A stretch of 64,000 bases of DNA from Bacteroidota bacterium. GTDB taxonomy: Bacteria; Bacteroidota; Bacteroidia; SXHM01. How positions within the stretch are numbered: position 1 is the first letter of the stretch; the number at the start of each line of letters is the position of its first letter. The DNA lies in the NCBI GenBank assembly GCA_947479755.1, contig CANKAM010000011.1, positions 20,488 through 84,487 on the forward strand, given 5' to 3'. A program made the position numbers and the translations under genes. The notes below the pieces were generated by a model. The model had not been told where the DNA came from. It saw only the letters and a program-made list of their open reading frames with translations, and made no database searches. Positions 33,197-63,347 of this stretch are shown piece after piece.

Positions 33197-33325
33197 AATG
33201 ACCAAAGTCAAATTATTGCCTGCAAATCCGTTTTTGCACAGGTAAATTTATTGAAATATTTGCCGGCACAACAACCTGAGCACTATGTCAAAATTACTTT
33301 TATCATTTATGCCTGCCGCCACCCA

Positions 33326-33535
33326 TAATTTGCCGGCAAAGCCTGAGCGTGGGATGGCAAAAAGTCAGCCCGTGACGGCAAATTCTGGTGCAGGGACGGC
33401 AAATTCCCGAACAGTGACGGCACGGACTGAGGCCGGGAGGGCAAACCGCCACACCGGGAGAGCAAAAACTCAGCCCGTGATGGCAAAACCTCAGGCGGGG
33501 ATGGCAAAACCTCAGGCTGTGAGGGCAATGGGGCA
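33326..33535. repeat. Ten 21-bp tandem units in exact register (consensus GGCAAAnnnyCAGnCnGkGAn), bracketed by TTGCCGGCAA-type palindromes
   Basis: Units start at 33326, 33347, ..., 33515. Perfect 10-bp palindrome TTGCCGGCAA at 33321-33330, a 9/10 copy at 33260-33269, and TTGCCGCTAA at 33531-33540. Sits in the divergent region between the 31724..33196 and 33626..34369 genes. Confidence 0.7.
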
Positions 33536-33625
33536 GCATTTGCCGCTAAAAAGCACTCTTTTACGTTCATTTTATATATAAACCAATCAAACAATCAATA
33601 ATTAACCTAAAAAAAAACAGAAACC

Positions 33626-34369
33626 ATGGCAAAAGATTTTGTAAAAAGTAACGATGTACAATTTGTAGCACAACTTAACACCTTTAAAGCTAACCTGCCC
33701 TCTCATGCAATGTTATTTGGCTTAACACCTGCACAAATTGCTTCTGTGCAAGCCGATGCCGATTGGATGGCTTTTATAGTGCTGCGCAACAACGCTGCAC
33801 CCGGCTTTGCACAGGACTGGACAAAGCTAAAAGATCAGGTTCGCCACGGGGGCGATGGAAGTATTATTCCACCCTTCCCAACTCCACCGGATGTTGTTAC
33901 CCCACCAATGGGTACTATACAGCCCGATGTGGAAGGGCGTTTTCGCCAATTGGCAGCTCAACTGAAAGCAAACAGCAACTACAGCAAAGCTATTGGCGAA
34001 AACTTAGGTATTGAAGCAGATGAAACCAGCTTTGATGCCGGAAATTATAAACCCGAAGGCAGCGCAAAAGCGGTATTGAATGTGGTAACTATCAAGTTCA
34101 CTAAAAAAGGAGTGGATGGTCAGGCTATCTACAGCAAGGTAACAACAGGGGTGAGCACACTGCCCTCTACACCGGGCTCTCCGGCACCGGCTACGCTTAG
34201 TCAGTACACCAAAATAGCCATAGACTTCCATAGTCCTTATGTTGATAACCGTGCACTTACCATTGCCGGGCAGCCCGAACTGCGGGAATATTACCTGCGT
34301 GGTGTACTCAGTGATGCCGAGATTGGTGTACCCTCTGATATAATCAGAGTAATAGTGGGAACTATCTAA
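33626..34369 (+). CDS. Hypothetical cytoplasmic protein with a Pro/Thr-rich central segment (PPFPTPPDVVTPPMGTIQP)
   Basis: 247 aa. Good start context (aaaccATGgc). No signal peptide. No recognised family. Confidence 0.5.
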   Translation: MAKDFVKSNDVQFVAQLNTFKANLPSHAMLFGLTPAQIASVQADADWMAFIVLRNNAAPGFAQDWTKLKDQVRHGGDGSIIPPFPTPPDVVTPPMGTIQPDVEGRFRQLAAQLKANSNYSKAIGENLGIEADETSFDAGNYKPEGSAKAVLNVVTIKFTKKGVDGQAIYSKVTTGVSTLPSTPGSPAPATLSQYTKIAIDFHSPYVDNRALTIAGQPELREYYLRGVLSDAEIGVPSDIIRVIVGTI

Positions 34370-34373
34370 AGTA

Positions 34374-34409
34374 AAAATCCCTCTCGCCTTTGGCGAGGGG
34401 GATTTTTGT
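34374..34409 (+). terminator. Rho-independent terminator hairpin AAAATCCCTCTCGCC-TTT-GGCGAGGGGGATTTTTG
   Basis: GC-rich stem plus T-tract, 5 nt after the stop at 34369. Confidence 0.7.
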
Positions 34410-34461
34410 TATGCCTTTATCAAAAAAATTACTATACTTTTGAACAACTAAAACTGAAACC

Positions 34462-36438
34462 ATGAAAAAAATATTTACACTCTTAAGCCTCGCAGTTTGT
34501 ATGAATGCAACTGCGCAAACATGCTTTACAACTGCAAGTTATCCGGTAGGTGGCGCAACCACAACAATTGCTGTTGCAGATTTTAACAATGACGGACATC
34601 TTGATATTGTTGCATCAAATGATGGAGGGCCTGGAGGTTCTGTTTACATGTTACCCGGTACAGGAACAGGAACTTTCGGAACTGTTATTCTTGCTGTTGA
34701 TGGTGGTGATAGTTTATTTTCAGTTTCATCACATTCTATAAGCGCTTCTGATTTTAATGCAGATAGTAATGCAGACCTGGCCATAGCTACAGGTACTGAT
34801 GTAAAAGTTCTACTTGGTGATGGTACAGGTCATTTTGCTCCCCCAACTGTTCATGTGGTTGGCAGTTATCCTTATGCTGCATGCATAGCAGATTTTAACG
34901 GAGATGGTGACATGGATATAGCATCTGCAAATGATGGTAATGTATCTGTTTTGTTAGGAAACGGAGCAGGCAATTTCAGTTCCCATGTTGATTTTTCTGC
35001 CGGTCCTGAAATGTATGCTATAACAATCGGTGATTTTAACGGAGACGGAGATGTGGATTTGGCTGCAACCAGCAATGCCAATGGTGGCGGGCTTGATAGT
35101 GTATGGGTATTGCTTGGCAATGGAACTGGTGGTTTCGGAACAGCCGCAAAATATTTAGCAGGGGAAGGGCCATATTCGGTTTGCAGTTCAGACTTTAATG
35201 ATGATGGATTTGATGATATAGCCGTTGCCAATACCAATTCCCAAAATGTTTCTGTATTATTAAGTCAGGGAGTTTCAGGCATATTTTCTCCTGCTGAAAA
35301 TTTCACAACACTTCATACTCCTTTTTCAGTTGTCAGTGCTGATTTTAACGTTGATGGAATTCCTGACTTGGCTACCGGAGCCCAGGGAAATGATGTATCA
35401 GTATTGTTGGGTACTGATTCGGCCTACTTTGGACCACCCGCTCTTTTTTCCTGCCCGGGTTTTCCATGGGAAATTGCCACCGGTGATTTCAATGAAGATG
35501 GCAGACCTGACCTTGCAGCAGCAAGTCATGATGCCTCTTCTGTTAAAGTATTACTAAACGTTGAAGTAGTGAACTGCACAGGCTGTGCATTAAATAACGG
35601 AGTTACAGTTCCTGATATTTGCATGGTATCAACCGATAGTGCATCATACTATCAATACAATGTTATTATTTGGGATAATTCGCTTTATACCAATGTTGAC
35701 AGTTTTATTGTGTATAGAAAAGATGCAATTACCTCAACCTATTTACGTATAGGAGCAACAAGCAAAGATTCGTTAAGCCTGTTTGTTGATACACAATTCA
35801 ATATTGGCGGTCCCAATGGAGGAAATCCAATGTACTCAAGTTGGTTTTACAAACTGGCAATACGTGATACCTGCGGCAACATCGGTGAAAAAAGTCCATA
35901 CCATCAAACAATGTTCTTTCAGCAGAATGGTGCCAATTTTTCGTGGAATGCTTATACCGTTGAAAGCGGACAAACCAACCCTGTAACAGGTTATTCATTT
36001 TTAAGAGACGATAATAATAACGGAAACTGGAATGTGTTGGTAAATACGGTAGGTCTTTCCACCACTGATCCTGACTACGCAAATTATCCAAACGGAAATT
36101 GGCGCATAGATGCATTAGGTTTTAGTTGCACACCAACCAATAAAACCTATATGGTGGCACAAAGCAATCCTATTAAACCAATAGTTGCAGGCATAGAGCA
36201 GTTATCATTAAATAAGGTAATAGTCTACCCTAACCCAGCCACCAACACACTAACCATTGAAACAGAAAGTGGCAATAGCATTTACCAATTGCAAGATTTA
36301 ACAGGCAAGGTATTGTTAAGCGGCAGTGTAACAGCAACTAAGTTTAGTTTAGATATTAGCGCACTAAGCAAAGGCATTTATTTACTAAGCCTTATTGATG
36401 GCGAGCAGCAGGTAAACAGGAAGGTTGTGAAAGATTAG
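34462..36438 (+). CDS. FG-GAP/VCBS-repeat protein with a T9SS C-terminal sorting domain
   Basis: Signal peptide. At least eight DFN(G/N/D)DG..D(I/L)A calcium-binding FG-GAP-like repeats. CTD VIVYPNPATNTLTIET...NRKVVKD. Confidence 0.75.
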   Translation: MKKIFTLLSLAVCMNATAQTCFTTASYPVGGATTTIAVADFNNDGHLDIVASNDGGPGGSVYMLPGTGTGTFGTVILAVDGGDSLFSVSSHSISASDFNADSNADLAIATGTDVKVLLGDGTGHFAPPTVHVVGSYPYAACIADFNGDGDMDIASANDGNVSVLLGNGAGNFSSHVDFSAGPEMYAITIGDFNGDGDVDLAATSNANGGGLDSVWVLLGNGTGGFGTAAKYLAGEGPYSVCSSDFNDDGFDDIAVANTNSQNVSVLLSQGVSGIFSPAENFTTLHTPFSVVSADFNVDGIPDLATGAQGNDVSVLLGTDSAYFGPPALFSCPGFPWEIATGDFNEDGRPDLAAASHDASSVKVLLNVEVVNCTGCALNNGVTVPDICMVSTDSASYYQYNVIIWDNSLYTNVDSFIVYRKDAITSTYLRIGATSKDSLSLFVDTQFNIGGPNGGNPMYSSWFYKLAIRDTCGNIGEKSPYHQTMFFQQNGANFSWNAYTVESGQTNPVTGYSFLRDDNNNGNWNVLVNTVGLSTTDPDYANYPNGNWRIDALGFSCTPTNKTYMVAQSNPIKPIVAGIEQLSLNKVIVYPNPATNTLTIETESGNSIYQLQDLTGKVLLSGSVTATKFSLDISALSKGIYLLSLIDGEQQVNRKVVKD

Positions 36439-36451
36439 GGGAGTAGTAGTT

Positions 36452-36494
36452 AAAACAAAAGTCCCTCGCCTAAGGCGAGGGACTTTTGTTTTTC
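36452..36494 (+). terminator. Bidirectional-capable terminator with a 19-bp perfect stem, AAAACAAAAGTCCCTCGCC-TAAG-GGCGAGGGACTTTTGTTTT
   Basis: Perfect inverted repeat with A- and T-tracts on both sides. Shares the CCCTCGCC...GGCGAGGG core with the 34374 terminator. Confidence 0.75.
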
Positions 36495-36691
36495 TGAATT
36501 TGAAACAATTAAACATTCAAGCGGTTGCCACATAGCTACGCCTGAGATGAACTGTGGTAATACCCCTGCAAAAAACTGACCACAAGACCATAACATAATT
36601 AACTTTACCAACCGTAAAACTTAAAAGTGCGGGCGGACTCTTTGGCGACACTGACTCGACCTTTCATTTGGAATAATAAGAAATAAATACC

Positions 36692-37888
36692 ATGAAAATT
36701 TTTATTATTATTTTATTTTTGCTGAGTTCCTTCCAAGCGTTTGCTCAAATAGATTGGGTTGTATATAATACTTCCAATTCTGGAATTCCTCACAATGTAG
36801 TTGAGGACATTACGTTTGATGCCAGTGGTAATATTTGGGTAGCAACCTATGGCGGTGTGGGGAAATTCGATGGGGCAAATTGGACTGCATATACCACCGC
36901 AAATTCTATTCTACCAAGTAACGTATGCTATTCGATTAAAGCTGATGCTGATACTATTTGGATTGGCTCAGTATATGGTTTAATAAAATTTGATGGCACG
37001 AATTGGACAAGTTATCCTTATGGATATGTGGTTTCAATGGCATTTGAAGAGAATGGAACGAAATGGTTTGGCGGGTATCAGACAGGATTAGTAAAATACG
37101 ATGGAAGTACTTGGACCCGATATGATGCTTCCAACTCTGATCTTACAGACAGTACCTATTATTCAATTAATATTGATAGTGTGAATAATAAATGGTTTGC
37201 TACCCCAGAGGGGGTATTCAAATTTGATGATATCGATTGGACACAATTTACTATAGGAAATTCTGATATACCCGGGAATATTATTGTAGCTCTTAGTATT
37301 GATGCAAATGATACGAAATGGATTGGGGTTGCAGAATTGGGCATGGGGCAATTTGATGATGTTATCTGGATCGGCTATGACACCCTCAATTCGGGGTTGC
37401 CTTCAAATTATGTGAATGCAGAAATTGCTTTTGATGAGAATGGTGATAAATGGATTGGTACTTCTACCAAAGGACTTGCATTTTTTGATAATACCACATG
37501 GACTACCTTTAATATGACGAATTCGGAATTACCATCAAATGCAGTCGAAGCAGTTTCAGTAGATAATGTAGGTAATAAATGGATAGGAACCTATGGTGAA
37601 GGTTTAGCGGTGTATCGTGAAAATGGGGTTATTCTATCAAACAATGATATTGCAAAGTCACAACCTGCAATTTATGTTTATCCTAATCCTGCAACTAATT
37701 ACTCTACAGTTGTAACTTCATTTAAGGGCACTTACCAATTGCAAGATATAACCGGCAAGGTATTGTTAACCGGCAGCGTAACTGCAACCAAGTTTAGTTT
37801 AGATATAAGCGCACTCAGCAAAGGCATTTATTTACTAAGCCTTTTTGATGGTGAGCAGCAGGTGAACAGGAAGGTGGTAAAAGAGTAA
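36692..37888 (+). CDS. Two-component-regulator-propeller-like repeat protein (NWT.Y...NS.LPSN.V..I..D..GN.WIGT) with a T9SS C-terminal sorting domain
   Basis: Signal peptide. At least seven repeats of about 45 aa with W-T-Y/F and WIGT motifs. The CTD is near-identical, at the DNA level too, to that of the preceding gene. Confidence 0.65.
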   Translation: MKIFIIILFLLSSFQAFAQIDWVVYNTSNSGIPHNVVEDITFDASGNIWVATYGGVGKFDGANWTAYTTANSILPSNVCYSIKADADTIWIGSVYGLIKFDGTNWTSYPYGYVVSMAFEENGTKWFGGYQTGLVKYDGSTWTRYDASNSDLTDSTYYSINIDSVNNKWFATPEGVFKFDDIDWTQFTIGNSDIPGNIIVALSIDANDTKWIGVAELGMGQFDDVIWIGYDTLNSGLPSNYVNAEIAFDENGDKWIGTSTKGLAFFDNTTWTTFNMTNSELPSNAVEAVSVDNVGNKWIGTYGEGLAVYRENGVILSNNDIAKSQPAIYVYPNPATNYSTVVTSFKGTYQLQDITGKVLLTGSVTATKFSLDISALSKGIYLLSLFDGEQQVNRKVVKE

Positions 37889-38011
37889 GCTATTTAAGAT
37901 TTAATAAGTAAGAGGTAATATTTGCTGGCGGTCTGCCTGTAACTATTACCTCTTACTTTTTACCTAATACATCTTTTTATAAGGCGTATATTTGTGCAAA
38001 CAAAATATACT

Positions 38012-38251
38012 ATGAGCACAACAGAAATAAAACAGCACCTTCACCAATACATAGATAAAGCAGACCAACGCTTTCTCAATATGATTTATGCTTTAACAAA
38101 AGAATATGCGAACTATACCGTTGTTTTGAGTGACGAAGAAAAAAAAGCTGCCGACAAGGGTTTAGCCTCCATAGCAAAAGGAAAAACGGTTCCTCATGCT
38201 AAGGTTATTTCAACCATGAAAAAGAAATATCCTTCCCTTAAGTTCAAATGA
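38012..38251 (+). CDS. Putative addiction-module antitoxin component (CHP02574-like)
   Basis: 79 aa from the ATG at 38012; the ORF-track start is GTG. MSTTEIKQHLHQYIDKADQRFLNMIYAL fits the small helical antitoxin pattern (EIK..L...ID.ADD..L..IY.L). Its TGA stop overlaps the ATG of the downstream RelE/ParE-like gene (ATGA). Confidence 0.5.
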   Translation: MSTTEIKQHLHQYIDKADQRFLNMIYALTKEYANYTVVLSDEEKKAADKGLASIAKGKTVPHAKVISTMKKKYPSLKFK

Positions 38252-38537
38252 AGAAAATAATCTGGTCAGCAGATGCTGTTTCTGATTATGAGCAAAATAT
38301 TGAATATTTGCTTGACGAATGGGGCATTAAAGAAACACAACAATTTATTGATTAAATAGCTGAAATGCTGAATACTATTTCTAAAATGCCCGAATTATTT
38401 CCGTTGAGTGATTATCGCGACATCAGAAAATGTGTGGTTCGCAAACAGATCAGCATTATATACACCGTTAAAGATGATAAGATTGAACTCGTAAGGGTTT
38501 GGAATAACAAACAAAATCCAAAAAAGCTGAAGGATTA
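38248..38537 (+). pseudogene. RelE/ParE-family toxin gene interrupted by an in-frame TAA at codon 36 (38353-38355)
   Basis: Single continuous frame MKKIIWSADAVSDYEQNIEYLLDEWGIKETQQFID-stop-IAEMLNTISKMPELFPLSDYRDIRKCVVRKQISIIYTVKDDKIELVRVWNNKQNPKKLKD. The stop replaces an expected Lys (gat TAA ata, where AAA is expected). The rest is intact and RelE/ParE-like. Confidence 0.6.
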
Positions 38538-38582
38538 AAAAACAAATTCTGCCTCCTGCTGTTTACCTGTTCGGGTATATAA

Positions 38583-40391
38583 ATGAAACACCTCTTCTAC
38601 CTCAATAAATATTTTATTCGTTATAAAGGACTGCTCATCATGGGCATTCTGTTTGTAACCATCTCTAATCTGTTTGCCATTTTTCCGGCACAGATTATTC
38701 GTCATGCGCTGGATGTGGTGGTGCAGACCATCAGCGTTTATAATCTTTTCTATGGTTTTGAAATGCAAAGTCCCTTAGGCGATTTACTGGATAAAACGCT
38801 ATTGATTTTTGGGATGGTGGTTATTTCGCTTGCCTTGCTGAAAGGAGTGTTCATGTTCTTTATGCGGCAAACCATTATCGTCATGTCGCGCCACATTGAG
38901 TACGACCTGAAGAACGATATTTATGAGCAATACCAACGCCTGAGCCTTGCCTTTTTCAAGCGCAACAACACAGGCGATTTAATGGCGCGCATCAGCGAAG
39001 ATGTAAGCCGTGCGCGCATGTATGTGGGTCCTGCAGTGATGTATTCCATTAACCTGGTGGTGCTTGCTGTGCTGTGTATTTGGGCCATGCTGAGCGTAAA
39101 TGTGGAACTAACTTTATTTGTCTTGCTGCCACTCCCCTTTCTTTCAATTGCCATCTATTATGTAAGCACCATGATAGACCAAAAAAGCGAACAGGTACAG
39201 GCGCAACTCTCCCGCCTTTCCACCTTTGTGCAAGAAACCTTTTCGGGCATTCGGGTGATAAAAGCCTACACCCGCGAAAAGGAAATGGAGCAGGAGTTTG
39301 TTAAAGAAACCAACGAGTATAAAGACAAGAGCATGGAGTTGGTGCGCATCAATTCGCTCTTCTTTCCTATTATGCTTTTGCTCATTGGATTAAGCACCCT
39401 GCTAACCATTTACATTGGCGGGAAACAGGTTATTGCAGGAAAAATAACATCGGGAAACATTGCCGAATTCATCATCTACATCAACATGCTTACCTGGCCT
39501 TTTACCGCAGTGGGTTGGGTAACTTCCATTATCCAACGTGCGGCAGCATCACAGCGCAGGATTAATGAATTTCTGCTACAGAAACCTGAAATAGAAAACC
39601 CATCCTCACAACCCACCGAGGTTAAAGGCGAGATTGTTTTTGATAACGTGAGTTTTGTTTATCCCGACTCGGGAATACAGGCGTTGAAGAATGTGTCCTT
39701 TAAAGTAGAGCCCGGAAAATCATTAGCCGTAATCGGTCGCACCGGCTCAGGTAAATCAACCATTGCTGCCCTGATTACCCGCCTTTACGACACAACCCAG
39801 GGCAACCTTTTTATTGACGGCAAAAACATACGCGAAAGCAACCTGTATGAATTGCGCAAACAAACAGGATATGTTCCGCAGGAAGTTTTTCTGTTCTCGG
39901 ATAATGTGTTTAACAACATTGCGTTCGGGATTAAGAAGGAAAGCTTTACAGGAAATCTTAAAGAAGCCGTTGAGCAAGCAGCAAAAGATGCCGCGGTGTA
40001 TGACAACATAATGGATTTCCCCGCAAAGTTCGACACCATGCTGGGCGAAAGAGGAATTACCCTTTCAGGCGGACAAAAACAGCGTGTTTCCATAGCCCGC
40101 GCCATTATCCAAAACCCTCGTATCCTTATTTTTGATGACTGCCTGAGTGCGGTTGATACCGAAACCGAAGAGATAATTCTGGGCAACCTGCGCAGGATTA
40201 TGAAAGGGAAAACATCGATTATTATCAGTCACCGCGTGTCATCTGTAAAAGATGCTGATACTATTATTGTATTGGATGGAGGAGAAATTATTGAGCGCGG
40301 AACGCATCAAGATTTGATGCAATCTAAAGGTGCTTACTACGAACTTTACCAGAAACAACTCCTGGAAGAGGAGAAAACAGAAGCTGCTTAG
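38583..40391 (+). CDS. ABC exporter, fused permease-ATPase (MsbA-like)
   Basis: Six N-terminal TM helices, then Walker A GRTGSGKST, signature LSGGQKQRVSIARA, and Walker B ILIFDDCLSAVD. 602 aa. Confidence 0.9.
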   Translation: MKHLFYLNKYFIRYKGLLIMGILFVTISNLFAIFPAQIIRHALDVVVQTISVYNLFYGFEMQSPLGDLLDKTLLIFGMVVISLALLKGVFMFFMRQTIIVMSRHIEYDLKNDIYEQYQRLSLAFFKRNNTGDLMARISEDVSRARMYVGPAVMYSINLVVLAVLCIWAMLSVNVELTLFVLLPLPFLSIAIYYVSTMIDQKSEQVQAQLSRLSTFVQETFSGIRVIKAYTREKEMEQEFVKETNEYKDKSMELVRINSLFFPIMLLLIGLSTLLTIYIGGKQVIAGKITSGNIAEFIIYINMLTWPFTAVGWVTSIIQRAAASQRRINEFLLQKPEIENPSSQPTEVKGEIVFDNVSFVYPDSGIQALKNVSFKVEPGKSLAVIGRTGSGKSTIAALITRLYDTTQGNLFIDGKNIRESNLYELRKQTGYVPQEVFLFSDNVFNNIAFGIKKESFTGNLKEAVEQAAKDAAVYDNIMDFPAKFDTMLGERGITLSGGQKQRVSIARAIIQNPRILIFDDCLSAVDTETEEIILGNLRRIMKGKTSIIISHRVSSVKDADTIIVLDGGEIIERGTHQDLMQSKGAYYELYQKQLLEEEKTEAA

Positions 40392-40404
40392 TGTCTCGTA
40401 AGTC

Positions 40405-40472
40405 GTCACCCTGAACTTGTTTCAGGGTCTTATTAAGAGAGATACTGAAACAAGTTCAGCATGACAAACTGC
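40405..40472. repeat. Second member of the GTCACCCTGA...GCATGACAAA hairpin family; 21-bp arms with 2 mismatches and a 19-nt loop
   Basis: GTCACCCTGAACTTGTTTCAG (40405-40425) pairs with CTGAAACAAGTTCAGCATGAC (40445-40465). The termini are identical to the 14283 element, but the inner stem sequence is different and compensatory. Confidence 0.55.
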
Positions 40473-40482
40473 ATAAAAAAAG

Positions 40483-40521
40483 CGTCCCGTCTGCCTGAGG
40501 CAGACGGGACGCTTTTTTATT
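40483..40521 (+). terminator. Rho-independent terminator GCGTCCCGTCTGCC-TGA-GGCAGACGGGACGC plus a T-tract; bidirectional, with an A-tract on the other side
   Basis: 14-bp perfect GC-rich stem flanked by aaaaaaa and tttttta. Lies between the convergent ABC exporter (+) and rpmE2 (-). Confidence 0.8.
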
Positions 40522-40536
40522 TAATTGAAGTTATTT

Positions 40537-40821
40537 CTATCCTTCAGTAGTTGTTTCAGGTCTTGCAGACTCTGTACGACCTTTGTAACGGTTACGGAAT
40601 TTATCAACGCGACCTGCAGTGTCAACCAATTTCATTTTACCTGTATAGAACGGGTGAGATTTATCAGAAATCTCTAATTTCACTAATGGATACTCAACAC
40701 CATCTTCATGTGTAATGGTTTCTTTTGTCTCAACAGTTGAGCGGCAAACGAATGAATAATCCATTGACATGTCTTTAAATACAACAAGTCTGTAGTTAGC
40801 TGGGTGTAATTCTTTTTTCAT
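40537..40821 (-). CDS. rpmE2: 50S ribosomal protein L31, type B (zinc-independent paralogue)
   Basis: [17 protein letters not shown]...[13 protein letters not shown] with no CxxC pair. The ATG at 40821 is taken as the start; the ORF-track start is TTG. Confidence 0.75.
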
Positions 40822-40953
40822 CTTCTTATTTTTTAGAGGGCGCAAATATAGATATTTCATTTTACCTGCCAAATATATTTACTGACTAAGTAACAAATAT
40901 TAGGTGTCTTATTCAGGAAAAAATATATTTTTGCGCCCTCAATTATCAAAAAC

Positions 40954-41634: not shown

Positions 41635-41643
41635 GCCCATCAC

Positions 41644-42135: not shown

Positions 42136-42137
42136 AT

Positions 42138-42160
42138 CCTCTCCAAAGGAGAGGACTTTT
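42138..42160 (+). terminator. Terminator hairpin CCTCTCC-AAA-GGAGAGG plus a T-tract after ribH. A second hairpin CCCTTCTCC-TTA-GGAGAAGGG at 42192-42212 may serve the convergent gene.
   Basis: Perfect 7-bp GC stem followed by acTTTT. The second hairpin has a 9-bp perfect stem. Confidence 0.5.
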
Positions 42161-42225
42161 CCAATAACTTTCTTATGAGTATCACTCTGTTCCCTTCTCC
42201 TTAGGAGAAGGGTTAGGGATGAGGC

Positions 42226-55392: not shown

Positions 55393-55395
55393 TGT

Positions 55396-56178
55396 TTAAT
55401 GCGAAACGGTAAACTTTTGGGTTGCGGTATTTTCGTTTGTCAGAATACGGGCAATATAATTACCGTTAGGCAAAGTAGCAGTGTTTATTTGCTTTGTTAT
55501 TAGTCCTTTTTGCTTTTCATCTGAAATAAGGGCAACCTGTTTTCCGGTTATGTCGGTAATACTTATTGTGTAATCTGACGTTTCGGTTAATGTAAACGTA
55601 ACACTTACATTATCATTTGCCGGATTAGGAAATACGTTGAATGAATTTACGCCTCCCTGCAAATTCTGAATACTGTTAGCTGTGTTAAACAATGCCAGAA
55701 TACTATCTCTCATAATAGTAGTATCACTTGACGAGAAACTCTGTGTTGAAAATAACACTCTGTGGTCCATACCGCCCAATAAAACAACTGTTGGCATACC
55801 AAAACCACCGTAATGGGCTACCTGTGCCTCACCATTAGCCATTGCGGTATAAATTGTTGAAACGTTACTTGTATTAACCCAGTTATCAGCAACAATGCAA
55901 CTTGAGTTATCAAAAGGAAATGCATAGCCCTTAACTTTTCCAGGAAACACGGCATTTATTTTATTGGCCATTTTTTGAATACGTTGTGCCGGAGGGGGAC
56001 AAGCACCGCAGTTAGGCATAAAGAAATGCAGCAAAACTGCTTTGCCTGCATCCAGATCGGCAAAAAGGTCAACCGCATCGCCACTGCAACTATTGCCGCT
56101 GAACTGCATTGCTGTTTGTGCATTTGATAAGTTTATTACAAATAGAAGAGCAATGGATAAAAGGAAAGATTTTGTCAT
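55396..56178 (-). CDS. Secreted thioredoxin-fold-like protein (CGAC motif) with a T9SS C-terminal sorting domain
   Basis: Signal peptide. LLHFFMPNCGACPP resembles a redoxin CxxC active site. CTD VFPNPANDNVSVTF...KFTVSH. 3-nt gap to the multicopper oxidase gene. Confidence 0.45.
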   Translation of the reverse strand: MTKSFLLSIALLFVINLSNAQTAMQFSGNSCSGDAVDLFADLDAGKAVLLHFFMPNCGACPPPAQRIQKMANKINAVFPGKVKGYAFPFDNSSCIVADNWVNTSNVSTIYTAMANGEAQVAHYGGFGMPTVVLLGGMDHRVLFSTQSFSSSDTTIMRDSILALFNTANSIQNLQGGVNSFNVFPNPANDNVSVTFTLTETSDYTISITDITGKQVALISDEKQKGLITKQINTATLPNGNYIARILTNENTATQKFTVSH

Positions 56179-56240
56179 TTTTTTTATTATTTAGTTTTTC
56201 AACTCAATGCAAAAGTGGTAAATTAGAATGAAGTTCATTA

Positions 56241-56759
56241 CTAATCGCCATCAAACTCTTCCTGTAACTTATTTTCTTCTAATTCAATTTTATGAAATGT
56301 GGCAAATTGCTTCTGCGCTTCCTGAAATTTCTTATCGACAATAGCTTCGCCATCCTGAACTTTCAGAAGAACGACATTCAGCTTTTCCATGTCAGGTGCA
56401 GGTTTATACAATTCATCAATAAGCAACGGGTAATCGTCACTCATGGTGGTTTTATAAAACTCAAATAAATTTTGTGAATTAACGCGCAGACTAAATTCAT
56501 TTTCAATGGGTTTTATTGATTTTACTGCTGCAATAGCATTATCACATTCTGCTATAACTTTTTTTAATTGTGCGTTAACAATGGCTTTGTCTTCGGGCAG
56601 ATTATCAAACATGCCAATCAGTTTAAGTAATTCATTACCTATTTTATTCTGATTGTTTACAAAATAATCGTTGTATTCAACAGGCTCGGTTATGGTTTGA
56701 GCTGAGGCTGTAAAAGCAATAAACAGAAGCAGTAATGTGTATCTGAATTTATTCATCAT
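56241..56759 (-). CDS. Secreted helical hypothetical protein
   Basis: Signal peptide MMNKFRYTLLLLFIAFTASAQ. 172 aa. No motif recognised. Confidence 0.4.
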   Translation of the reverse strand: MMNKFRYTLLLLFIAFTASAQTITEPVEYNDYFVNNQNKIGNELLKLIGMFDNLPEDKAIVNAQLKKVIAECDNAIAAVKSIKPIENEFSLRVNSQNLFEFYKTTMSDDYPLLIDELYKPAPDMEKLNVVLLKVQDGEAIVDKKFQEAQKQFATFHKIELEENKLQEEFDGD

Positions 56760-56822
56760 TAGGAGGTTGTTATTTTGGTGTAAAAGTAGCTTTTTGAAAT
56801 ACTGATCTGAATAGTCAGGATG

Positions 56823-57485
56823 TTAATGATTTACAATTAGTTTTCGCGTGGCTATTCCTTGCTTTGTCTTAATGTAAACGATGTATACACCGTTGTTTTC
56901 CAGATGCAACCTCATTGTTTTTTGTGTTGCTTGTGTATGGATTACTTCTTTTCCCAGCATGTCTGTAATGCTAATTTCAGCATAGTCTGTTGGAAGAGAA
57001 AGTGTAAACTGTCCGCTTGTTGGATTAGGGAACATTTGCACTAAAGAAGCAGTAAGTTCATTTACCGAAGTATTTAAAGTACCATACGTAAAACTGAAAG
57101 GGTAACTGCAATCAAAGGATTTATCGTTGGGGTCGTTGATGGTTAAGATGCCGGTAAATACCGTGTTTAATGGAACGGTAGCTTCTTGGGCAATTGTGCC
57201 GTTAAAGCTGCCCAGGGTATACCCGTTATTGCCATCACCCGGCACACTTAAAAAAGTAGGAATCATCAACGTATCGCTCATTACTATATAGGGATTGGCA
57301 TCAAGAAGGGCAGTAAAAAAAGGATACGCAATAAAATGAGTGCTGCTGTTATATACCTCGACATAAAGCATATTTGCATCAAGGTAGGCTGTATCAACAT
57401 CCATTGAATCGCATAGGGTTTGGGCACTTGACTTTACAGTACCAAGCAGCAATGCTGCACTTAGAATAAGTATAATTTTTTTCAT
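56823..57485 (-). CDS. Secreted hypothetical protein with a T9SS C-terminal sorting domain
   Basis: Signal peptide. CTD QMFPNPTSGQFTLSL...RKLIVNH. Confidence 0.5.
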   Translation of the reverse strand: MKKIILILSAALLLGTVKSSAQTLCDSMDVDTAYLDANMLYVEVYNSSTHFIAYPFFTALLDANPYIVMSDTLMIPTFLSVPGDGNNGYTLGSFNGTIAQEATVPLNTVFTGILTINDPNDKSFDCSYPFSFTYGTLNTSVNELTASLVQMFPNPTSGQFTLSLPTDYAEISITDMLGKEVIHTQATQKTMRLHLENNGVYIVYIKTKQGIATRKLIVNH

Positions 57486-57580
57486 TGTATTGCTGATTAA
57501 TAATTCAGCAGCAAAGCTAACTAAAATCAGAAAAGATTAAACGATATAACACCTGAGAAAGTCTCGTGTAAAAGAACTTC

Positions 57581-59689
57581 TTACTTGCTTAAAAAAATCT
57601 TTTTAAACAAGGTTCTGTCATCAATAGTTAAGTGACAGATATAGATGCCGCTTGCAAGATTTGCAGGTGACCATTTGTAGCGTTCCGTTCCGGGGTACAA
57701 AACTTCTGAATTGAAATTCTTAACTGTATGACCCATTACATCATGAATGGAAAGGCTTACGCGACTCTGCTTATTCACATTCACTTCCATGGTAAGTTCA
57801 TTTGAAAACGGATTGGGATAACAATTAAAAACGGTTTCGTTTTCTGCTGTATTACCGGGGTTAACTGATAGCGGGGTGTAATATCCAAAGTGCAAAATAA
57901 CTCCGTTGTCATCCCAGCCGGATTGAATAACAGCAATGGGATTACCTAAATCATCCTGTGCTTTAATCAGGGCAAGGTCTTGTCCGTTATCAACAATAAA
58001 ACTTAGTGCAGAATCAAGTGGTAATAAGGTATGCGGAATAATTACCGTTAGCGAATCATTGCTTAACAGTGTTTGAAATTCAATGCTGTTTCTGCCTGTC
58101 CAGAAATCGGCATAGGTTTCAAAATCGCAAACCATCATATCATCGGGCAGTTGATTTATAAAATCCTGTTCGGCCTGTAGTTTAAATACCCGCGTTGGGT
58201 GTATGAGCAAAACACTGGGTGCATAATTGGCTTTGTTTTTTGAAACTACGTCTAACCATATCGCTACTTTTTCGTGGTAGTTTTCGGGTGAAATAACATC
58301 GTCATGAAAGATATCCGAAATAGTTACGGGAATTTCCCATACATCGGATAATACACCACTGCTTAATCTGTCTTTAAAGGATTGGAAAGGAAAATTGGTA
58401 AGCACATCATTTGCCGAAGCAGTTGTGTTGTATTGATAATCCAGCGTGTCCAGTGCATTGGTAAGTTTATCATTGAAACATAAGTAACCTGCACGGAAGG
58501 TGCGGATGGAAACTCCGAATAATGATTCCAACAGATTTTTTGAGACCTCTGTTTCGCCAAGAACGGTTGAGCCCATGGTGGGTGTGGCTATGCATGAATC
58601 AAAAGGAAGGTAATTGCTGGTGGTATTTCCAAGGGTGCCTAAGGGTGCAATCAGTTCGTCATTGAAATCAATAAAATGCCCTACCGAGTGACTTGCCAGT
58701 TTATGTCCCTTGTCAAGCAGGTATTGCACTTTGGGATAATTGCCGGGTTTAAAATAGTCGGCCATACACTCATCATCAAGGTAATGGGTGGTAATAAGGT
58801 AGGTGGATGAAAATCCTCTTGCCTGTTCATAATCTGCATACAGGTGCATGGTGTCAAAAGCGGATGTGGCATCTACATCGTGGGTAACCATAAGGGTTGC
58901 ACTGCTTTCAAAAGGACTGGTGTGCAGCCATACCGAATTTGAAATTGTTTGGGCGCAAATGCCTTTTATAAATAATATAAGGGCATCGCTGGTGGGCTCA
59001 AATCCATTGGAATAAACGCGCTGCGCTTCATAATCACGGTTGGTTTGGTTCACTGCTATCAGGCTTTTGAACGAAAAACCAAGGGCATAGCTTTTTCCTG
59101 AACCATAGGTGTGTTTTGTAATGGCGGTTTCGCTATCATTATATACAGCCAATGAAGTTGCACCCGATGTTGTATAGCTGCGTGTATTTAAAAATGTGGC
59201 GAACTGAGACGAATCACCAAGACTTATGGTTTGTTCAAGTGTATCATTGAGCCAGCGAAACGAGGGCTCACCCAACGATATATCAAATGAGATATTGAAA
59301 TGCAAATCTGAATTTACCGAGCTTGAAATACCGAACAGGGCAAACAGATAAGGGTCACGTACATTGGGTGCAATAAGGCAGCCACCGTTTGACACATAGC
59401 TTATTAAGGTATCCTTTTCAACGGTGCTCAGCGAAAATGTTTCCAGTTTGGAAGAGGCAATAACTACACCATATTGAACAGCAGAATCAACATTGGTGGT
59501 TATACTAAAAGGCAAGCCCGCTACTTTTAGTATGTGGGTTATTGAGTATAATTCGGCTACTCCGGTTTCTGAATTATTAACCGTAAGGTCAAGAACAGCA
59601 ATGGTTCGCGGATAGATTACTGATGCAAATGAGCTTATGTTTCCTGTCAGCAGCAATAACAGGAGAACTGCTTTTAAAGTCTTTAACAT
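57581..59689 (-). CDS. Secreted polysaccharide-deacetylase-like (CE4/NodB-fold) protein with a large N-terminal domain and a T9SS C-terminal sorting domain
   Basis: Central region has CE4-like motifs THDVD (TFDDG position), HSVGH, and RAGYL (RxxY). CTD NCYPNPFSNELTMEV...KKIFLSK. The ATG at 59689 is taken as the start; the ORF-track start is GTG. Confidence 0.5.
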   Translation of the reverse strand: MLKTLKAVLLLLLLTGNISSFASVIYPRTIAVLDLTVNNSETGVAELYSITHILKVAGLPFSITTNVDSAVQYGVVIASSKLETFSLSTVEKDTLISYVSNGGCLIAPNVRDPYLFALFGISSSVNSDLHFNISFDISLGEPSFRWLNDTLEQTISLGDSSQFATFLNTRSYTTSGATSLAVYNDSETAITKHTYGSGKSYALGFSFKSLIAVNQTNRDYEAQRVYSNGFEPTSDALILFIKGICAQTISNSVWLHTSPFESSATLMVTHDVDATSAFDTMHLYADYEQARGFSSTYLITTHYLDDECMADYFKPGNYPKVQYLLDKGHKLASHSVGHFIDFNDELIAPLGTLGNTTSNYLPFDSCIATPTMGSTVLGETEVSKNLLESLFGVSIRTFRAGYLCFNDKLTNALDTLDYQYNTTASANDVLTNFPFQSFKDRLSSGVLSDVWEIPVTISDIFHDDVISPENYHEKVAIWLDVVSKNKANYAPSVLLIHPTRVFKLQAEQDFINQLPDDMMVCDFETYADFWTGRNSIEFQTLLSNDSLTVIIPHTLLPLDSALSFIVDNGQDLALIKAQDDLGNPIAVIQSGWDDNGVILHFGYYTPLSVNPGNTAENETVFNCYPNPFSNELTMEVNVNKQSRVSLSIHDVMGHTVKNFNSEVLYPGTERYKWSPANLASGIYICHLTIDDRTLFKKIFLSK

Positions 59690-59862
59690 CACTAAAATTC
59701 AGGTGGGGATTTGTACAGCAAAACATTTGCTACGAAGGTAGGTGATTATTGTTCAGCTATTGCAGAACATTTGCCTGTTTTGACTACCGGCTTATTCAAC
59801 GTTCAGGAGGCATCTGTCCCGTAAAACATAGCGAACTGTTACACTTTACGGGTTAACGGGCT

Positions 59863-61605
59863 CTAAAACATTCTTATGGCTCTTACCACACCACCATATG
59901 AATTAGCATCACTCTTTGGAATATTACCTATGTAACCGGTATAAGAAGGATAATTATTAAAGTTTATATTGGCGTTATTCGCACTGAATTGATTGGAAGT
60001 CCAGTATCCCTGTGCATTGCTGATTCCATTGATGAGTACTAAGTTTAAATCCATTGCAATCCATTCATTATCCGATGGCAGAAACCAATCGGAATAACTA
60101 TTTAACACCAAGCTGTTGCAAAGCTCGGCAGCAATTCCGGGGGTATTGCACCCGGCTATAATATCTAAGGTATTTTGTGCGCCATCGCCAATTAATGTTC
60201 CGTTTGCGCCTGTAATTAATGTTCCTTCACAACCCCATACTACCCCTGTTCCTATATTACTTTGTGAAATAATAATTCCGTGCAGTACATTGATATCATA
60301 TCCCGGGTCGCCATTTTGTAAAAAGTATCCGATTATACCGCCCTGATGGTAACTGCCGATAGAAAGTGTTGAGGTAGTTGTAAATGTATATTCGTTACCG
60401 TATGACGTTCCTGCAATATTGGTAGCATAGGCTCTGAGATAATACGTTGTGCTTATTACTAAGCCATTTGCAATACTGGAGAATGAACCGTTGCCAAATC
60501 CATCAACAGTTTTGCTGTTTGCAATTGTTGGTGAGGGTGAGGTGCTCCAGCAAACGCCTTTTGCGGTTACGTTTGCTCCTCCGTCAGCGGATACGTTTCC
60601 GCCTGAATAGGCTACACCGCCTGTAACACCTGTTACTGGTGTTGTGGTTACGGTTGGCAGAGATGGATTGAAGGTGCTGAAACTAACCTGATTGCCATAC
60701 GCAACTCCTGCACTGTTAATAACATAGGCACGAACGAAATAAGTAGTACCGGGAGCTAAATTAGTAAGATAGGAATTAAAAGCACCTACCGTTATATTGC
60801 TCTGGTAGTAAGAATAATCATCTGCCATAGTAGGATTTGGAGAAGTGCTCCAAACCATACCATATCCAAAAACAGGAGAACCTCCGGAAGCGGTGATACC
60901 GGTATTGCTAAGATTTCCACCGGCACCGTTGTAAGCAGAAAAATAAACCTGCGAAGGTATAGGGTCGGTGGTTAAGGTTGCCAACCCTCCTCCTGTCCAA
61001 GTGGGGACATTGGTAGCATCTACCTGTAGAAATTGTCCGGGTGTTCCAATGGGTATCATCACCCATGAAGTTCCGTTCCAGTATTGCATATCGCCCGGGT
61101 TTGTTCCGGCCGGAAAAGCGCCTGTTGCTCCGGTTGCCCCTGCACTGCCTGTTGCTCCGGGCGCACCTGTTGCACCGGTTGCTCCTGTATTTCCGCTGGT
61201 TTTAGCATACAGTGCATAGGGAACCGAAACCAGTTGTGATGTTCCCATGTTCTGATAATTTGTTCCTCCTGCAGCATCCATTTCTGACTGTATGTAAAAC
61301 ACATCGCTGCCCCAGCTGATGGTGCTGAATGTTCCGCTTACTACTGTTCCATCACCAATTTTAATATCAAATAATCCAAAAGCATTGGTGGCTGTGGCCT
61401 GCGTTTCCTGATACACAACAGGTCCGCCAGCGCTGGTGCTGTGCAGTGTTAATCTTAAACCTATGTTTTGGTTAGGCAATACGTTTCCGCTAAGGTCGCG
61501 AGCAACGCCCTGATAATTCATTTTTTCGGGGGCCTGGGCGAAGGCAGATGTGAGACAGGAGATATGAGATATGAGACAGGCGAGAAAGAGGAATAGTTGC
61601 TTCAT
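59863..61605 (-). CDS. Secreted collagen-like (Gly-X-Y) repeat protein with a C-terminal DUF1566-like (Lcl C-terminal type) domain
   Basis: Signal peptide MKQLFLFLACLISHISCLTSAFAQ from the ATG at 61605. Gly-X-Y run GNTGATGATGAPGATGSAGATGATGA. C-terminal YSDWFLPSDNEWIAM resembles the W(R/F)LP..EL motif of DUF1566. Confidence 0.55.
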   Translation of the reverse strand: MKQLFLFLACLISHISCLTSAFAQAPEKMNYQGVARDLSGNVLPNQNIGLRLTLHSTSAGGPVVYQETQATATNAFGLFDIKIGDGTVVSGTFSTISWGSDVFYIQSEMDAAGGTNYQNMGTSQLVSVPYALYAKTSGNTGATGATGAPGATGSAGATGATGAFPAGTNPGDMQYWNGTSWVMIPIGTPGQFLQVDATNVPTWTGGGLATLTTDPIPSQVYFSAYNGAGGNLSNTGITASGGSPVFGYGMVWSTSPNPTMADDYSYYQSNITVGAFNSYLTNLAPGTTYFVRAYVINSAGVAYGNQVSFSTFNPSLPTVTTTPVTGVTGGVAYSGGNVSADGGANVTAKGVCWSTSPSPTIANSKTVDGFGNGSFSSIANGLVISTTYYLRAYATNIAGTSYGNEYTFTTTSTLSIGSYHQGGIIGYFLQNGDPGYDINVLHGIIISQSNIGTGVVWGCEGTLITGANGTLIGDGAQNTLDIIAGCNTPGIAAELCNSLVLNSYSDWFLPSDNEWIAMDLNLVLINGISNAQGYWTSNQFSANNANINFNNYPSYTGYIGNIPKSDANSYGGVVRAIRMF

Positions 61606-61932
61606 GGTTATTGTTTTTAGGTTGCACAAATATAGAAAAGTTTTAAAGCGAAGTATTAATTGGGTTTAAAGATGGTATTTATACACCTACTAAATTACAG
61701 CTTATGCAGGCGGTATTTGCCTTACACAATGTCCATACGTCAAAGGCTGCTGTTGCAATCAGCAACAGTCATTTAGCTTGAAATAGAATTTGTTTTTAAA
61801 AACCACCAATACCCATAAAGTTTAATATCACCTAAGATTATTAACCAACCACCCGTGAATATCATTTTTTGGTATCTTAAAAAAAGTTTATAATTTTGCC
61901 TTAACACGGTGTTAAAAATAAGGTGATTAATC

Positions 61933-62664
61933 ATGGATTACTTTGACAGAGACATGCAGCGCGTGATGAAGAGGATGAGGGAGAAGCTGAACCTTGGCAA
62001 CATAAGCCGGGGTAATGACCTTCATTTGCTGGAAGAGTTAGCTGCCACCTTTAATTTCTGCATTGTTTTACACCATCCCGGTTCGGTTGATGCCTTCTTT
62101 GCAAGCAGGCGTTTCTTTAATTTGCTTGGCAAAAAGAAAGGTGCAAGTGAGTATGTGTATGCCGATTATAATGAGGCATTTAAGCAAAGCAGCAATATGG
62201 CTTATCATGCCTTGTTTCTGCAACACTTCAGCACCCCTGCTGCCGACACCCACCGAGGCAGTTATAAGTTTAAAGATGTTAAGGCAAAGGTATTCTGGCT
62301 CAACTCCTGCTCCTGCCTTATGGATACCGGAACGGGTAACAAACCCATTATACTTACCCTGCTGTATCAGGCACAGCAGACCATGAGCACCGACCACCAG
62401 ATACTGAATGACCTTATCAGAGGTCTGGACTTAGATGAGCTGATGAGTAAAATCAATAAACTAAGCGACCGCGAACTGGAGGTATTTGAATACCTGGCAC
62501 AAGGCACCGATAAAAAAACGGCAAGTGATGAATTATTCATTTCGGAAGATACATTTATTACCCACCGTAAAAACCTGAGAAAGAAAATAGGCTCGCCCTA
62601 TAACGACAAACTGTTGCTCAGTTACTTATCCAACAAGTATTACCGCCTTTTACACAACCTGTAA
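61933..62664 (+). CDS. LuxR-family (FixJ/NarL-type HTH) transcriptional regulator with an N-terminal domain of unknown function
   Basis: C-terminal LSDRELEVFEYLAQGTDKKTASDELFISEDTFITHRKNLRKKIG is a LuxR-type HTH. No receiver-domain Asp pocket was recognised in the N-terminal 170 aa. Confidence 0.75.
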   Translation: MDYFDRDMQRVMKRMREKLNLGNISRGNDLHLLEELAATFNFCIVLHHPGSVDAFFASRRFFNLLGKKKGASEYVYADYNEAFKQSSNMAYHALFLQHFSTPAADTHRGSYKFKDVKAKVFWLNSCSCLMDTGTGNKPIILTLLYQAQQTMSTDHQILNDLIRGLDLDELMSKINKLSDRELEVFEYLAQGTDKKTASDELFISEDTFITHRKNLRKKIGSPYNDKLLLSYLSNKYYRLLHNL

Positions 62665-62676
62665 ATTACCCTTTTA

Positions 62677-62726
62677 AGGGTAGGGCAAGTAGGGTGCCAA
62701 GCCATAACATTACCCTGGAAAGGGTA
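62677..62726. promoter_or_regulatory. Two 16-bp palindromes TACCC-N6-GGGTA (62677-62692 and 62711-62726), 34 bp apart; candidate operator pair
   Basis: tacccttttaagggta and taccctggaaagggta sit immediately downstream of the LuxR-family gene and upstream of the 21-bp array. Confidence 0.35.
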
Positions 62727-62756
62727 TGCCTCTGCCCTGCTCTATGGTATTTCTTT

Positions 62757-62834
62757 GCGCTGTCAATAAAACTCACCCCCTACCCCTCTCTTTGAAATAA
62801 AGAGAGGGGAGAATGGAAAAGCAATTGACAGCGC
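62757..62834. promoter_or_regulatory. Nested inverted repeat: outer GCGCTGTCAAT/ATTGACAGCGC, inner CCCCTCTCTTT-GAAAT-AAAGAGAGGGG (62784-62809)
   Basis: A perfect 11-bp outer arm pair encloses a perfect 11-bp inner hairpin. Could be a terminator for the LuxR gene or a structured regulatory RNA/DNA element. Confidence 0.5.
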
Positions 62835-62982
62835 TCTTTGACATATTGAAAAACAACCGAAGACTTTAATTACAAGTCGTAAGAGCTTAACTGCTCAACC
62901 AAATACCTTGTTTACACTACACAATGCCTTAAACGGGCAGCAAAATACCTTACGGGCAGCACAGAAAGCTTTAATTGATGCA

Positions 62983-63213
62983 CACAAGACCTTAAATGCT
63001 GAACTTAAGACCTTAAGCGGTGAACTTAAGACCTTAAATCAAAGACTTAATTCATTAAATGCAAGACTTAAGACCTTAAACGCTGAACTTAAAACCTTAA
63101 CTGCAAGACTTAAGATCTTAAGCGCTGAACGCAAGACCTTAAGTGCAAGGTTTAAGACCTTAAATGCTGTACGCATGACCTTAACGCTTAAACGCAAGGC
63201 ATTTTATCAGTAA
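62983..63213 (+). repeat. Eleven 21-bp tandem units (core CTTAAGACCTTAAnnGnnGAA, each containing the inverted pair TTAAG-AC-CTTAA). Open in one frame as a leucine-zipper heptad array (LNAELKT x10) that starts at TTG 62908.
   Basis: Units start at 62983, 63004, ..., 63193 in exact register. Translation gives LxxxLxx heptads with L at the a/d positions. No ATG start; only a TTG at 62908. The ORF track lists it as a 101-aa ORF. Confidence 0.6.
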
Positions 63214-63347
63214 ACAGTAAACAATTGACAGTTGATATGGACTATGAACTGTGGACTATTGACTGTGACTACCGACCATGAATTACTAATTTAATTAAAC
63301 AACATAACTAAATAATAACTAATAACTAACAACTAATAACTAAACAA
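63214..63347. repeat. AT-rich low-complexity spacer: TGGACTAT(G/T)(A/G)ACTG x2, then (A)TAACTAA heptamer-like iterations
   Basis: tggactatgaactgtggactattgactgtgactac ... aactaaataataactaataactaacaactaataactaaacaac, immediately upstream of the ATG at 63348. Confidence 0.5.

Follow-up and report, generated by a model that had tools for sequence, protein, structure and literature searches.

The two loci

The window analysed here is a stretch of 64,000 nucleotides (64 kb) from a Bacteroidota bacterium (GenBank assembly GCA_947479755.1, contig CANKAM010000011.1, positions 20,488 to 84,487 of the forward strand). It contains two tandem arrays with a strict period of 21 bp, each followed by a gene for a protein of about 240 amino acids (aa). 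Positions are given in the numbering of the window throughout, L-numbers designate loci fetched for comparison, and the two proteins with their relatives are referred to as family 1 and family 2. The central features are as follows:

33334..33543, + strand: array 1, 10 x 21 bp, in-register reading
33626..34369, + strand: family-1 gene, 247 aa
62851..63208, + strand: array 2, ~17 x 21 bp, 358 bp, core AAGACCTTAA / CTTAAG
63349..64000, + strand: family-2 gene, cut by the window end, ~241 aa at full length in relatives

Array 1 is built from the core G-n-G-A-n-G-G-C-A-A and a free spacer of ~10-11 nt. From 33334 to 33543, ten GGCAA-type cores follow each other at 21-bp intervals, each unit starting with GGCAA and ending with G-n-G-A-n; Tandem Repeats Finder (TRF) reported the array as two sub-blocks. 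The core pattern occurs seven times inside the array and only twice elsewhere in the window. For array 2, TRF delimits a clear part at 62971..63184 (period 21, 10.2 copies), which is preceded by ~7 degenerate in-register units reaching back to ~62851. Exact matches to its core lie inside the array only. A lag scan over the whole window revealed both arrays as its sole lag-21 arrays, with identities of 0.61 and 0.66 compared to a background of 0.28 (standard deviation 0.046).

In the original prediction, both arrays had been described as exactly ten units in strict 21-bp register. The register is borne out by TRF, by the in-register reading and by the lag scan. The unit number was correct for array 1 (10 x 21 = 210 bp) but not for array 2 with its ~17 units over 358 bp. 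Genes for proteins with Pro-rich linkers that elude annotation were correctly placed behind both arrays: neither protein matches Pfam, and the first gene starts at 33626 as proposed, but the second starts at 63349 instead of 63348.

Array length had also been proposed as a subject of comparison. In three syntenic orthologues (82-85% protein identity), array 1 keeps its 10 units with zero indels. In the four-orthologue alignment the core columns are invariant, while the spacers are free and drift by point mutation. Array 2 is nearly identical in L009, the differences being limited to the variable part of three units.

Survey of related loci

Relatives of both proteins were sampled from Bacteroidia and Chitinophagaceae metagenome-assembled genomes (MAGs), from Planctomycetota (L029, L031), from Fimbriimonadales (L025) and from many metagenomes, activated-sludge and freshwater samples among them. 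An array was called where lag-21 or lag-42 identity reached at least 0.5 in a window of at most 700 nt upstream of the gene. By this measure, arrays are present in 20 of 25 family-1 loci and in all 12 family-2 loci (32/37 in total), whereas the background of the same loci attains an identity of at least 0.5 at only 0.13% of positions. Since arrays are carried by so many relatives against so low a background, the association of array and gene is a conserved module, of which the window holds two instances. The array-bearing loci cover Bacteroidota, Planctomycetota and Armatimonadota.

The geometry of the module is constant. In 34 of the 37 loci, identity between lags 5 and 70 peaks at 21, 42 or 63, and the register runs without indels across 10-24 units; some arrays alternate two unit types, resulting in a 42-bp period. 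The distant AT-rich member L059 follows the same pattern. Arrays lie consistently 5' of and near the gene, in most loci ending 8-160 bp short of the ATG, with a leader of 40-140 bp between array and gene. The unit sequences, on the other hand, are wholly different between loci, including paralogues of one genome (L015, L020, L022), and the GC content of the arrays ranges from 0.28 to 0.65. Arrays were absent or below threshold in the most remote relatives, namely L034, L036, L037 (Ignavibacteriaceae) and L038 (Ohtaekwangia), and below threshold in a Bacteroidales MAG (L033, identity 0.47-0.48).

The contigs L011, L012 and L043 stop ~30-120 nt upstream of the family-2 gene, at the expected position of the array. 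Assemblies thus appear to break at these repeats, and arrays are probably under-represented in metagenome assemblies.

These data bear directly on the question whether the likeness of the two window loci is a coincidence, two unrelated tandem repeats having come to lie before unrelated genes. The missing sequence homology of the two proteins (see below) would be in line with this. Against it stand the 32 of 37 relatives with arrays at the same place, compared to 0.13% of background positions, and the leader box and domain layout common to both types of loci; we regard coincidence as refuted, with practically no probability left to it. The original prediction had tied such a coincidence to two outcomes, no homology between the products and no further instances in the genome. 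The first applies, but the second is contradicted by dozens of further instances, so that the parallel is not accidental. The proposal of a recurring module with locus-specific recognition sequences is supported: the 21- and 42-bp arrays of the relatives differ in their unit, occupy the same position and are flanked by regulators of different families.

Edges and leaders of the arrays

At locus 1 the core reappears in inverted orientation at both ends of the array, and two boxes mark the leader:

33260..33269, no strand: inverted core copy TTGCCGGCAC, upstream of array 1, kept in 3/4 orthologues
33330..33339, no strand: palindrome TTGCCGGCAA, inverted core plus first core, 5' edge of array 1
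33539..33544, no strand: inverted core copy TTTGCC, 3' edge of array 1
33573..33613, + strand: leader boxes TATATATAAAC (33573..33583) and ATTAACCTAAAAA (33601..33613), kept in orthologues

The right half of TTGCCGGCAA is the first core of array 1, and the corresponding alignment columns 118-128 are invariant in the four orthologues; at the 3' edge, T329-C333 are invariant in 4/4. A TTAACC(C)TTAAAA box is found 10-25 nt before the ATG in ~15 of 35 loci, in both families.

The flanks of array 2 are organised differently:

62667..62682, 62711..62726 and 62783..62809, + strand: three hairpins after the LuxR-type gene described below
62831..62853, + strand: conserved box GCGCTCTTTGACATATTGAAAAA, 5' edge of array 2, family-2 consensus GTTCTTTGACATACTGGAAA
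63304..63344, + strand: TAACTAA heptamer repeats (TRF), leader from array 2 to the ATG

Short palindromes had been proposed to bracket both arrays. This was true for array 1, where TTGCCGGCAA borders the first unit, but at locus 2 the TACCC-N6-GGGTA hairpins directly follow the LuxR-type gene, ~125-185 bp 5' of the degenerate array start and 250-300 bp before the clear units. In L009 the two TACCC/GGGTA hairpins (62667..62682, 62711..62726) have the same stems, but the second has a different loop. They are probably terminators or REP-like (repetitive extragenic palindromic) elements. The third hairpin coincides in part with a terminator-like site called on the - strand.

The box at the 5' edge, which contains TTGACA (the GTTCTTTGACATACTGG box), is found in 9 of 13 family-2 loci, whatever the family of the neighbouring regulator. 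It is not coding, since in-frame stops follow it in 5 of the 9 loci. The TAACTAA repeats of the leader have a counterpart in L009, where a related TTAAACTAACAA repeat occupies 5938..5960. They are reminiscent of intergenic TAACTGA direct repeats reported from Beggiatoaceae (PMC4679880).

Coding capacity of the arrays

Reading frames run open through both window arrays and are annotated by gene callers:

33285..33581, + strand: array-1 open reading frame (ORF), 98 aa, judged a repeat by-product
62908..63213, + strand: array-2 ORF, 101 aa, TTG start, LNAELKT heptads, judged a by-product

The arrays might accordingly encode small heptad-repeat proteins, of 98 aa and, resembling a leucine zipper, of 101 aa, acting as partners of the downstream protein. 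With 21 bp equal to seven codons, Leu at the a/d positions of the array-2 product and many weak coiled-coil Pfam matches, such a reading has some appeal. The pattern of substitutions speaks against it. In the array-1 ORF, differences per column amount to 1.31/2.09/1.81 for codon positions 1/2/3, whereas the genuine gene next to it gives 37/41/87; the 'Ala' codon has an unchanging third base in 4 species x 10 units, and the conserved columns G-n-G-A-n-G-G-C-A-A take no account of codon position. In the array-2 ORF, the Leu codons are fixed as TTA/CTT, and comparison with L009 reveals a 1-bp indel in the supposed N-terminus and a different C-terminus. In L006, L008 and L013 the gene callers opt for the other strand, and stops occur in every + frame of L040, L047, L048 and L025. 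An open frame in a 21-bp repeat is moreover expected by chance (~0.71 per frame), and the opposite strand of array 1 is likewise open. Coding heptad peptides were rejected on codon-position pattern, stops, inconsistent strand and indel, and we consider this explanation highly improbable. The ORFs are by-products of the repeat, not genes.

DNA or RNA element

In 27 of 30 arrays the units are more dyad-symmetric than under a column-permuted null (p = 1.3e-7), and many cores are 6-bp palindromes with extended arms. Palindromes of this length are also the type that restriction-modification systems recognise. Folding of 35 arrays with RNAfold found the + strand more stable in 14 (p = 0.17), the difference following the GC skew. 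Since no strand preference or covariation was seen, the units are dyad-symmetric and the period is a multiple of 21 bp, equal to two turns of B-DNA, the data favour arrays that are double-stranded DNA elements read on one helix face by sequence-specific, often dimeric proteins.

In principle, the array could instead function at the RNA level, transcribed either into a long 5' leader or into a repeat RNA of its own. The downstream protein could then be bound or sequestered by the repeats, similar to type III toxin-antitoxin systems or TRAP-like repeat binding, or the repeats could control the stability or translation of the mRNA. The array is invariably 5' of the gene and near it, adjoins the ribosome-binding region in L025, L029 and L031 and is preceded by the TTGACA-containing box in family 2. 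The layout resembles that of toxI-toxN (PMC3401426), and core differences from locus to locus would also be expected under co-evolution of protein and RNA. The folding data do not bear this out: besides the missing strand preference, the + strand of several arrays is no more stably folded than shuffled sequences, mismatches in candidate stems comprise 26 G-T and 14 A-C pairs with 41 others, and the covariation term of RNAalifold for the four array-1 orthologues is -0.31 kcal/mol. A hairpin array in + strand RNA was therefore rejected, there being no strand bias, G-U excess or covariation. Family-1 products are near neutral (median isoelectric point (pI) 6.7, N-terminal net charge ~0), and it is not obvious why an RNA should keep a 21-nt unit constant across unrelated sequences. 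No terminator was called between array and gene at either window locus, in a scan that is uninformative for this phylum. Rfam gave zero matches to the arrays; at gathering thresholds it returned one tRNA only in the window (5570..5643), and E-value scans gave weak, chance-level matches only. Altogether, we consider a function as RNA unlikely.

A further explanation concerns the shape of the DNA instead of a binder. Units placed every two helical turns would add small bends in phase, resulting in strongly curved or readily wrapped DNA upstream of the promoter that would modulate the binding of RNA polymerase or nucleoid proteins. The 21/42/63-bp period is held irrespective of sequence, GC content (0.28-0.65) and neighbour, and short A/T tracts occur in many units. 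However, the array-1 orthologues keep a specific 10-bp core while the spacers drift, pointing towards sequence-specific reading, and the GC-rich arrays L021 and L029 lack A-tracts. We consider a function through shape improbable, more so than a function as RNA.

The units were also considered as copies or mimics of the gene's own translation start. This was rejected: similarity to the cognate start is 9.93/15 and to non-cognate starts 9.89, the reverse-strand control giving the same. ATGGCAAAA, present in array-1 units and at the start codon, was judged a chance match.

Downstream proteins

AlphaFold2 models of both products share a common layout of an N-terminal long-helix domain, a Pro-rich linker of low confidence and a C-terminal beta-sandwich. 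The family-1 model (predicted local distance difference test, pLDDT, 84.8) consists of an N-terminal three-helix domain, the linker, two short helices and an FN3-like sandwich. In the family-2 model (pLDDT 82.1) a short N-terminal strand is followed by long helices and the FN3 domain. Foldseek returned FN3 domains only for both beta-sandwiches. Neither protein matched Pfam, NCBIfam, PHROGs, PADLOC or PDB sequences, apart from generic FN3 matches in PHROGs and BFVD. Family 1 is large, with 3045 representatives at 50% identity (E<=1e-3).

The original prediction had raised homology of the two products and proposed pairwise and profile alignment to settle it; none was found by BLASTP (best E 0.27) or by hhalign, which gave probabilities of 0.2-0.3% even with a 108-sequence family-1 profile. 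The LTP...Q...D...I segment that both proteins had been said to share is noise, the best BLASTP match lying elsewhere in the proteins. The similarity is limited to the general architecture of helical domain plus FN3.

The FN3 product was rejected as DNA binder of the array, as family 1 is near neutral and contains no helix-turn-helix (HTH) motif. In family 2, a short basic N-terminal strand (K5, R7) is only suggestive of DNA binding. A phage or plasmid origin was discarded as well: no relatives of the families were found in IMG/VR or PLSDB, and PHROGs and BFVD gave only the generic FN3 matches. A defence system was dismissed on zero PADLOC matches.

Type IX secretion cargo proteins with Por_Secre_tail are frequently encoded behind the module, in 4 of ~10 contexts (window 34462..37888; L008, L011, L058). 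This may only reflect the abundance of such genes in these genomes.

Neighbouring regulators

Upstream of the arrays, genes for regulators of several families were found. In the window these are:

31724..33211, - strand: RusR-like TPR protein gene, divergent neighbour of array 1, candidate regulator
61933..62664, + strand: LuxR/GerE-type HTH regulator gene, immediately 5' of array 2 (Pfam GerE, E 3.3e-12, residues 176-220)

The nearest upstream genes at the loci compared are:

Window locus 1 and orthologues: distant RusR/BT2802 relative
Window locus 2 and L009: LuxR/GerE, same position
L013: LytTR
L052: LytTR
L035: XRE
L047: XRE
L050: XRE
L044: Cro/C1
L048: AraC
L019, L020: weak GerE

Of 9 non-redundant family-2 loci, 7 have a transcription-factor gene as their closest upstream neighbour, compared to 2-3 regulators among roughly 100 other annotated neighbours. 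The RusR-like protein matches NCBIfam BT_2802_fam over residues 12-475 with E 5.9e-33 and 114.6 bits, short of the curated cut-off of 550. It has one TPR repeat and is a distant relative of RusR/BT2802, RusR being a candidate regulator with predicted DNA-binding motifs (bioRxiv 10.1101/574913). Syntenic orthologues of 490 aa are found in L001, L056 and L057.

Neighbour and core change together. The clade of the window combines the RusR-like neighbour with the G-n-G-A-n-GGCAA core; L004, L015 and L016 have other neighbours and different cores, their products being 69-76% identical. Judged from the sequences, this change of neighbour with core at a conserved product may be taken as a natural experiment that fits the operator model set out below. 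Within the window, each core motif is restricted to its own array, which makes a global factor unlikely as the reader of the arrays.

In L004 (5600..5625), L015 (~2660..2675) and L016 (1..35), the arrays are closely preceded by (GA)n tracts of 14-34 nt and then TTCCTTTTAAAT. These loci have no RusR-like neighbour, and window locus 1 has no such tract. In L024, the family-1 array is immediately preceded by genes for a C5 cytosine methylase and a restriction endonuclease of the Eco47II type (329..2308).

Proposed explanation

The explanation that we prefer starts from what was observed at these loci, namely the arrays with their strict period, the conservation of core plus spacer, their non-coding nature, the linkage to both protein families and the frequent adjacency of a regulator. 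We propose, with a probability of about 45%, that the arrays are helically phased operator arrays for a locus-specific, usually adjacent regulator that controls the helical + FN3 gene cooperatively. The cassette would be ordered as, often, a transcription-factor gene, then the non-coding array, a 40-140-bp leader and the gene for the ~240-aa helical + FN3 protein. In the array, 10-24 candidate binding sites, each a ~10-12-bp, frequently dyad-symmetric core with a free spacer, would present themselves every 21 bp, that is, every two turns of B-DNA. A locus-specific DNA-binding protein would load cooperatively along one helix face of the double-stranded array, and array occupancy would set transcription of the downstream gene in a switch-like manner. 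The most likely binder would be the product of the neighbouring regulator gene, RusR-like at locus 1 and of the LuxR type at locus 2. A spacing of 21 bp would be the tightest in-phase packing of 16-20-bp operators, and different regulators would lead to different cores. Binding by the regulator, the identity of this protein and its effect on transcription are predictions.

Several points weigh against the operator model. The regulator families vary while the spacing stays fixed, which needs a reason beyond any single protein. At ~13 family-1 loci, no regulator gene was found adjoining the array. The TTGACA-containing box at the 5' edge of family-2 arrays could be a promoter, placing the array inside the transcript, and in L025, L029 and L031 the arrays reach to ~10-35 nt from the ATG and leave no room for a separate promoter. 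Scans with sigma-70 promoter and terminator consensus sequences do not cover the promoters of Bacteroidota and are uninformative for this phylum.

A broader claim, which we put forward only tentatively and with the odds somewhat against it, is that of a widespread undescribed cassette made up of a swappable regulator, a phased array of 10-24 sites and a helical + FN3 effector, in a layout absent from any described system. Here the array would form a one-faced nucleoprotein filament or a natural 'sponge', resulting in an all-or-none switch; alternatively, it would be a new protein-binding repeat RNA. In the literature searched for 21- and 42-bp arrays, no description of this layout was found.

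Comparison with known systems

The 21-bp spacing is known from LytTR-type sites, which consist of 9-bp repeats with a 12-bp spacer or of 10 + 11 bp (PMC2766830). Similar to the arrays described here, sites of AgrA, ComE, PlnC and SilA combine a 9-10-bp core with an 11-12-bp spacer into a 21-bp repeat, array 1 following the 10 + 11 scheme. In contrast, LytTR sites are known as repeat pairs, whereas the present loci contain 10-24 units, and most of the loci have regulators of other families. No LytTR gene is among the ORFs of the window; at the loci compared, it is present only in L013/L014 and L052.

Plasmid iterons (R6K, pPS10, P1, theta replication) are phased direct repeats of ~17-22 bp, with inverted half-iterons at the rep promoter. 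The likeness lies in the phased tandem repeats beside a gene and, for array 1, also in the inverted cores at its edges. The present loci differ in that the product has no Rep domain, there is no PLSDB match, the flanks are chromosomal housekeeping genes and several divergent copies occur per genome. Many phased sites upstream of a gene, at times in mixed orientations, are likewise brought into one cooperative complex at partition centromeres and multi-operator repressosomes (parC of R1 and pSK41, sopC of F, omega-repressor heptads, MraZ boxes). Many tandem phased sites upstream of a gene are a shared feature, but the unit sizes differ and the helical + FN3 product has no recognisable DNA-binding fold; no ParA, ParM or TubZ partner occurs in the neighbour lists of the loci examined.

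In type III toxin-antitoxin systems, units of ~34-45 nt in 2-6 copies are followed by a terminator before the toxin, an endoRNase of the ToxN/AbiQ type. Locus-specific tandem repeats lie immediately 5' of a single protein gene in toxIN, cptIN and tenpIN (PMC3401426). Tandem repeats directly upstream of a protein gene are also found here. However, the units are of 21 bp in 10-24 copies, the protein is of the FN3 type, no terminator-like site was called, and Pfam and PADLOC gave no match to ToxN/AbiQ, CptN or TenpN.

To our knowledge, no conserved natural bacterial array of the decoy type has been described. Decoy arrays in yeast (PMC3322331) and the E. coli sponge (PMC7686491) are synthetic, and work on response regulators (PMC8599769) concerns dispersed natural sites. 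As in decoy or 'sponge' designs, the present loci have many tandem sites for one factor beside the target, which could give threshold behaviour (PMC3322331, PMC8599769). A CRISPR array, with repeats of ~23-50 bp and unique spacers, does not agree with a core of ~11 bp, a spacer of ~10 bp that diverges by point mutation and the absence of cas genes.

Because at least one defining feature of each of these systems was looked for and is missing, the loci are not members of any of them. They most resemble a multi-operator array.

Further repeats in the window

The remaining periodic block of the window (~4959..5486; a 45-bp repeat, joined towards the 3' end by a weaker 24-bp signal) lies inside a coding gene. 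In this region, a 280-aa Lys/Ala-rich ORF (4643..5485, - strand) contains 45/51-bp coding repeats at 5177..5353; its product may be a histone-H1-like or nucleoid protein.

In the gap that separates a Glu/Leu dehydrogenase gene from the end of the RusR-like gene (31620..31727) lie inverted heptamer blocks, ATAGAAA x ~6 (31643..31683) and then CTATTTG x ~4.6 (31696..31727). At 30040..30090 and 30483..30517, 8-bp repeats TGATTAGC and their complement AGCTAATT/ATCAGCTAAT in inverted orientation flank both sides of a 130-aa gene of the 23S-rRNA-IVP family (30065..30457, - strand), which together with them looks like a bounded cassette.

Conclusion

For genome annotation, the arrays are a source of error, as gene callers routinely annotate spurious ORFs of ~100-150 aa through them. 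The module also offers a way into a large protein family (3045 representatives at 50% identity) for which Pfam, NCBIfam and PDB contain no relative. Should the arrays indeed be operators, bacteria would have in them a natural extreme of multivalent, phased transcription-factor binding, with 10-24 sites and an evolutionarily stable number of them; such a phased multi-site design has so far mainly been explored with synthetic decoy arrays. With a constant geometry and cores that vary together with the neighbouring regulator, the loci would constitute a ready set of matched regulator/operator pairs for studies of specificity, possibly useful for orthogonal switches.

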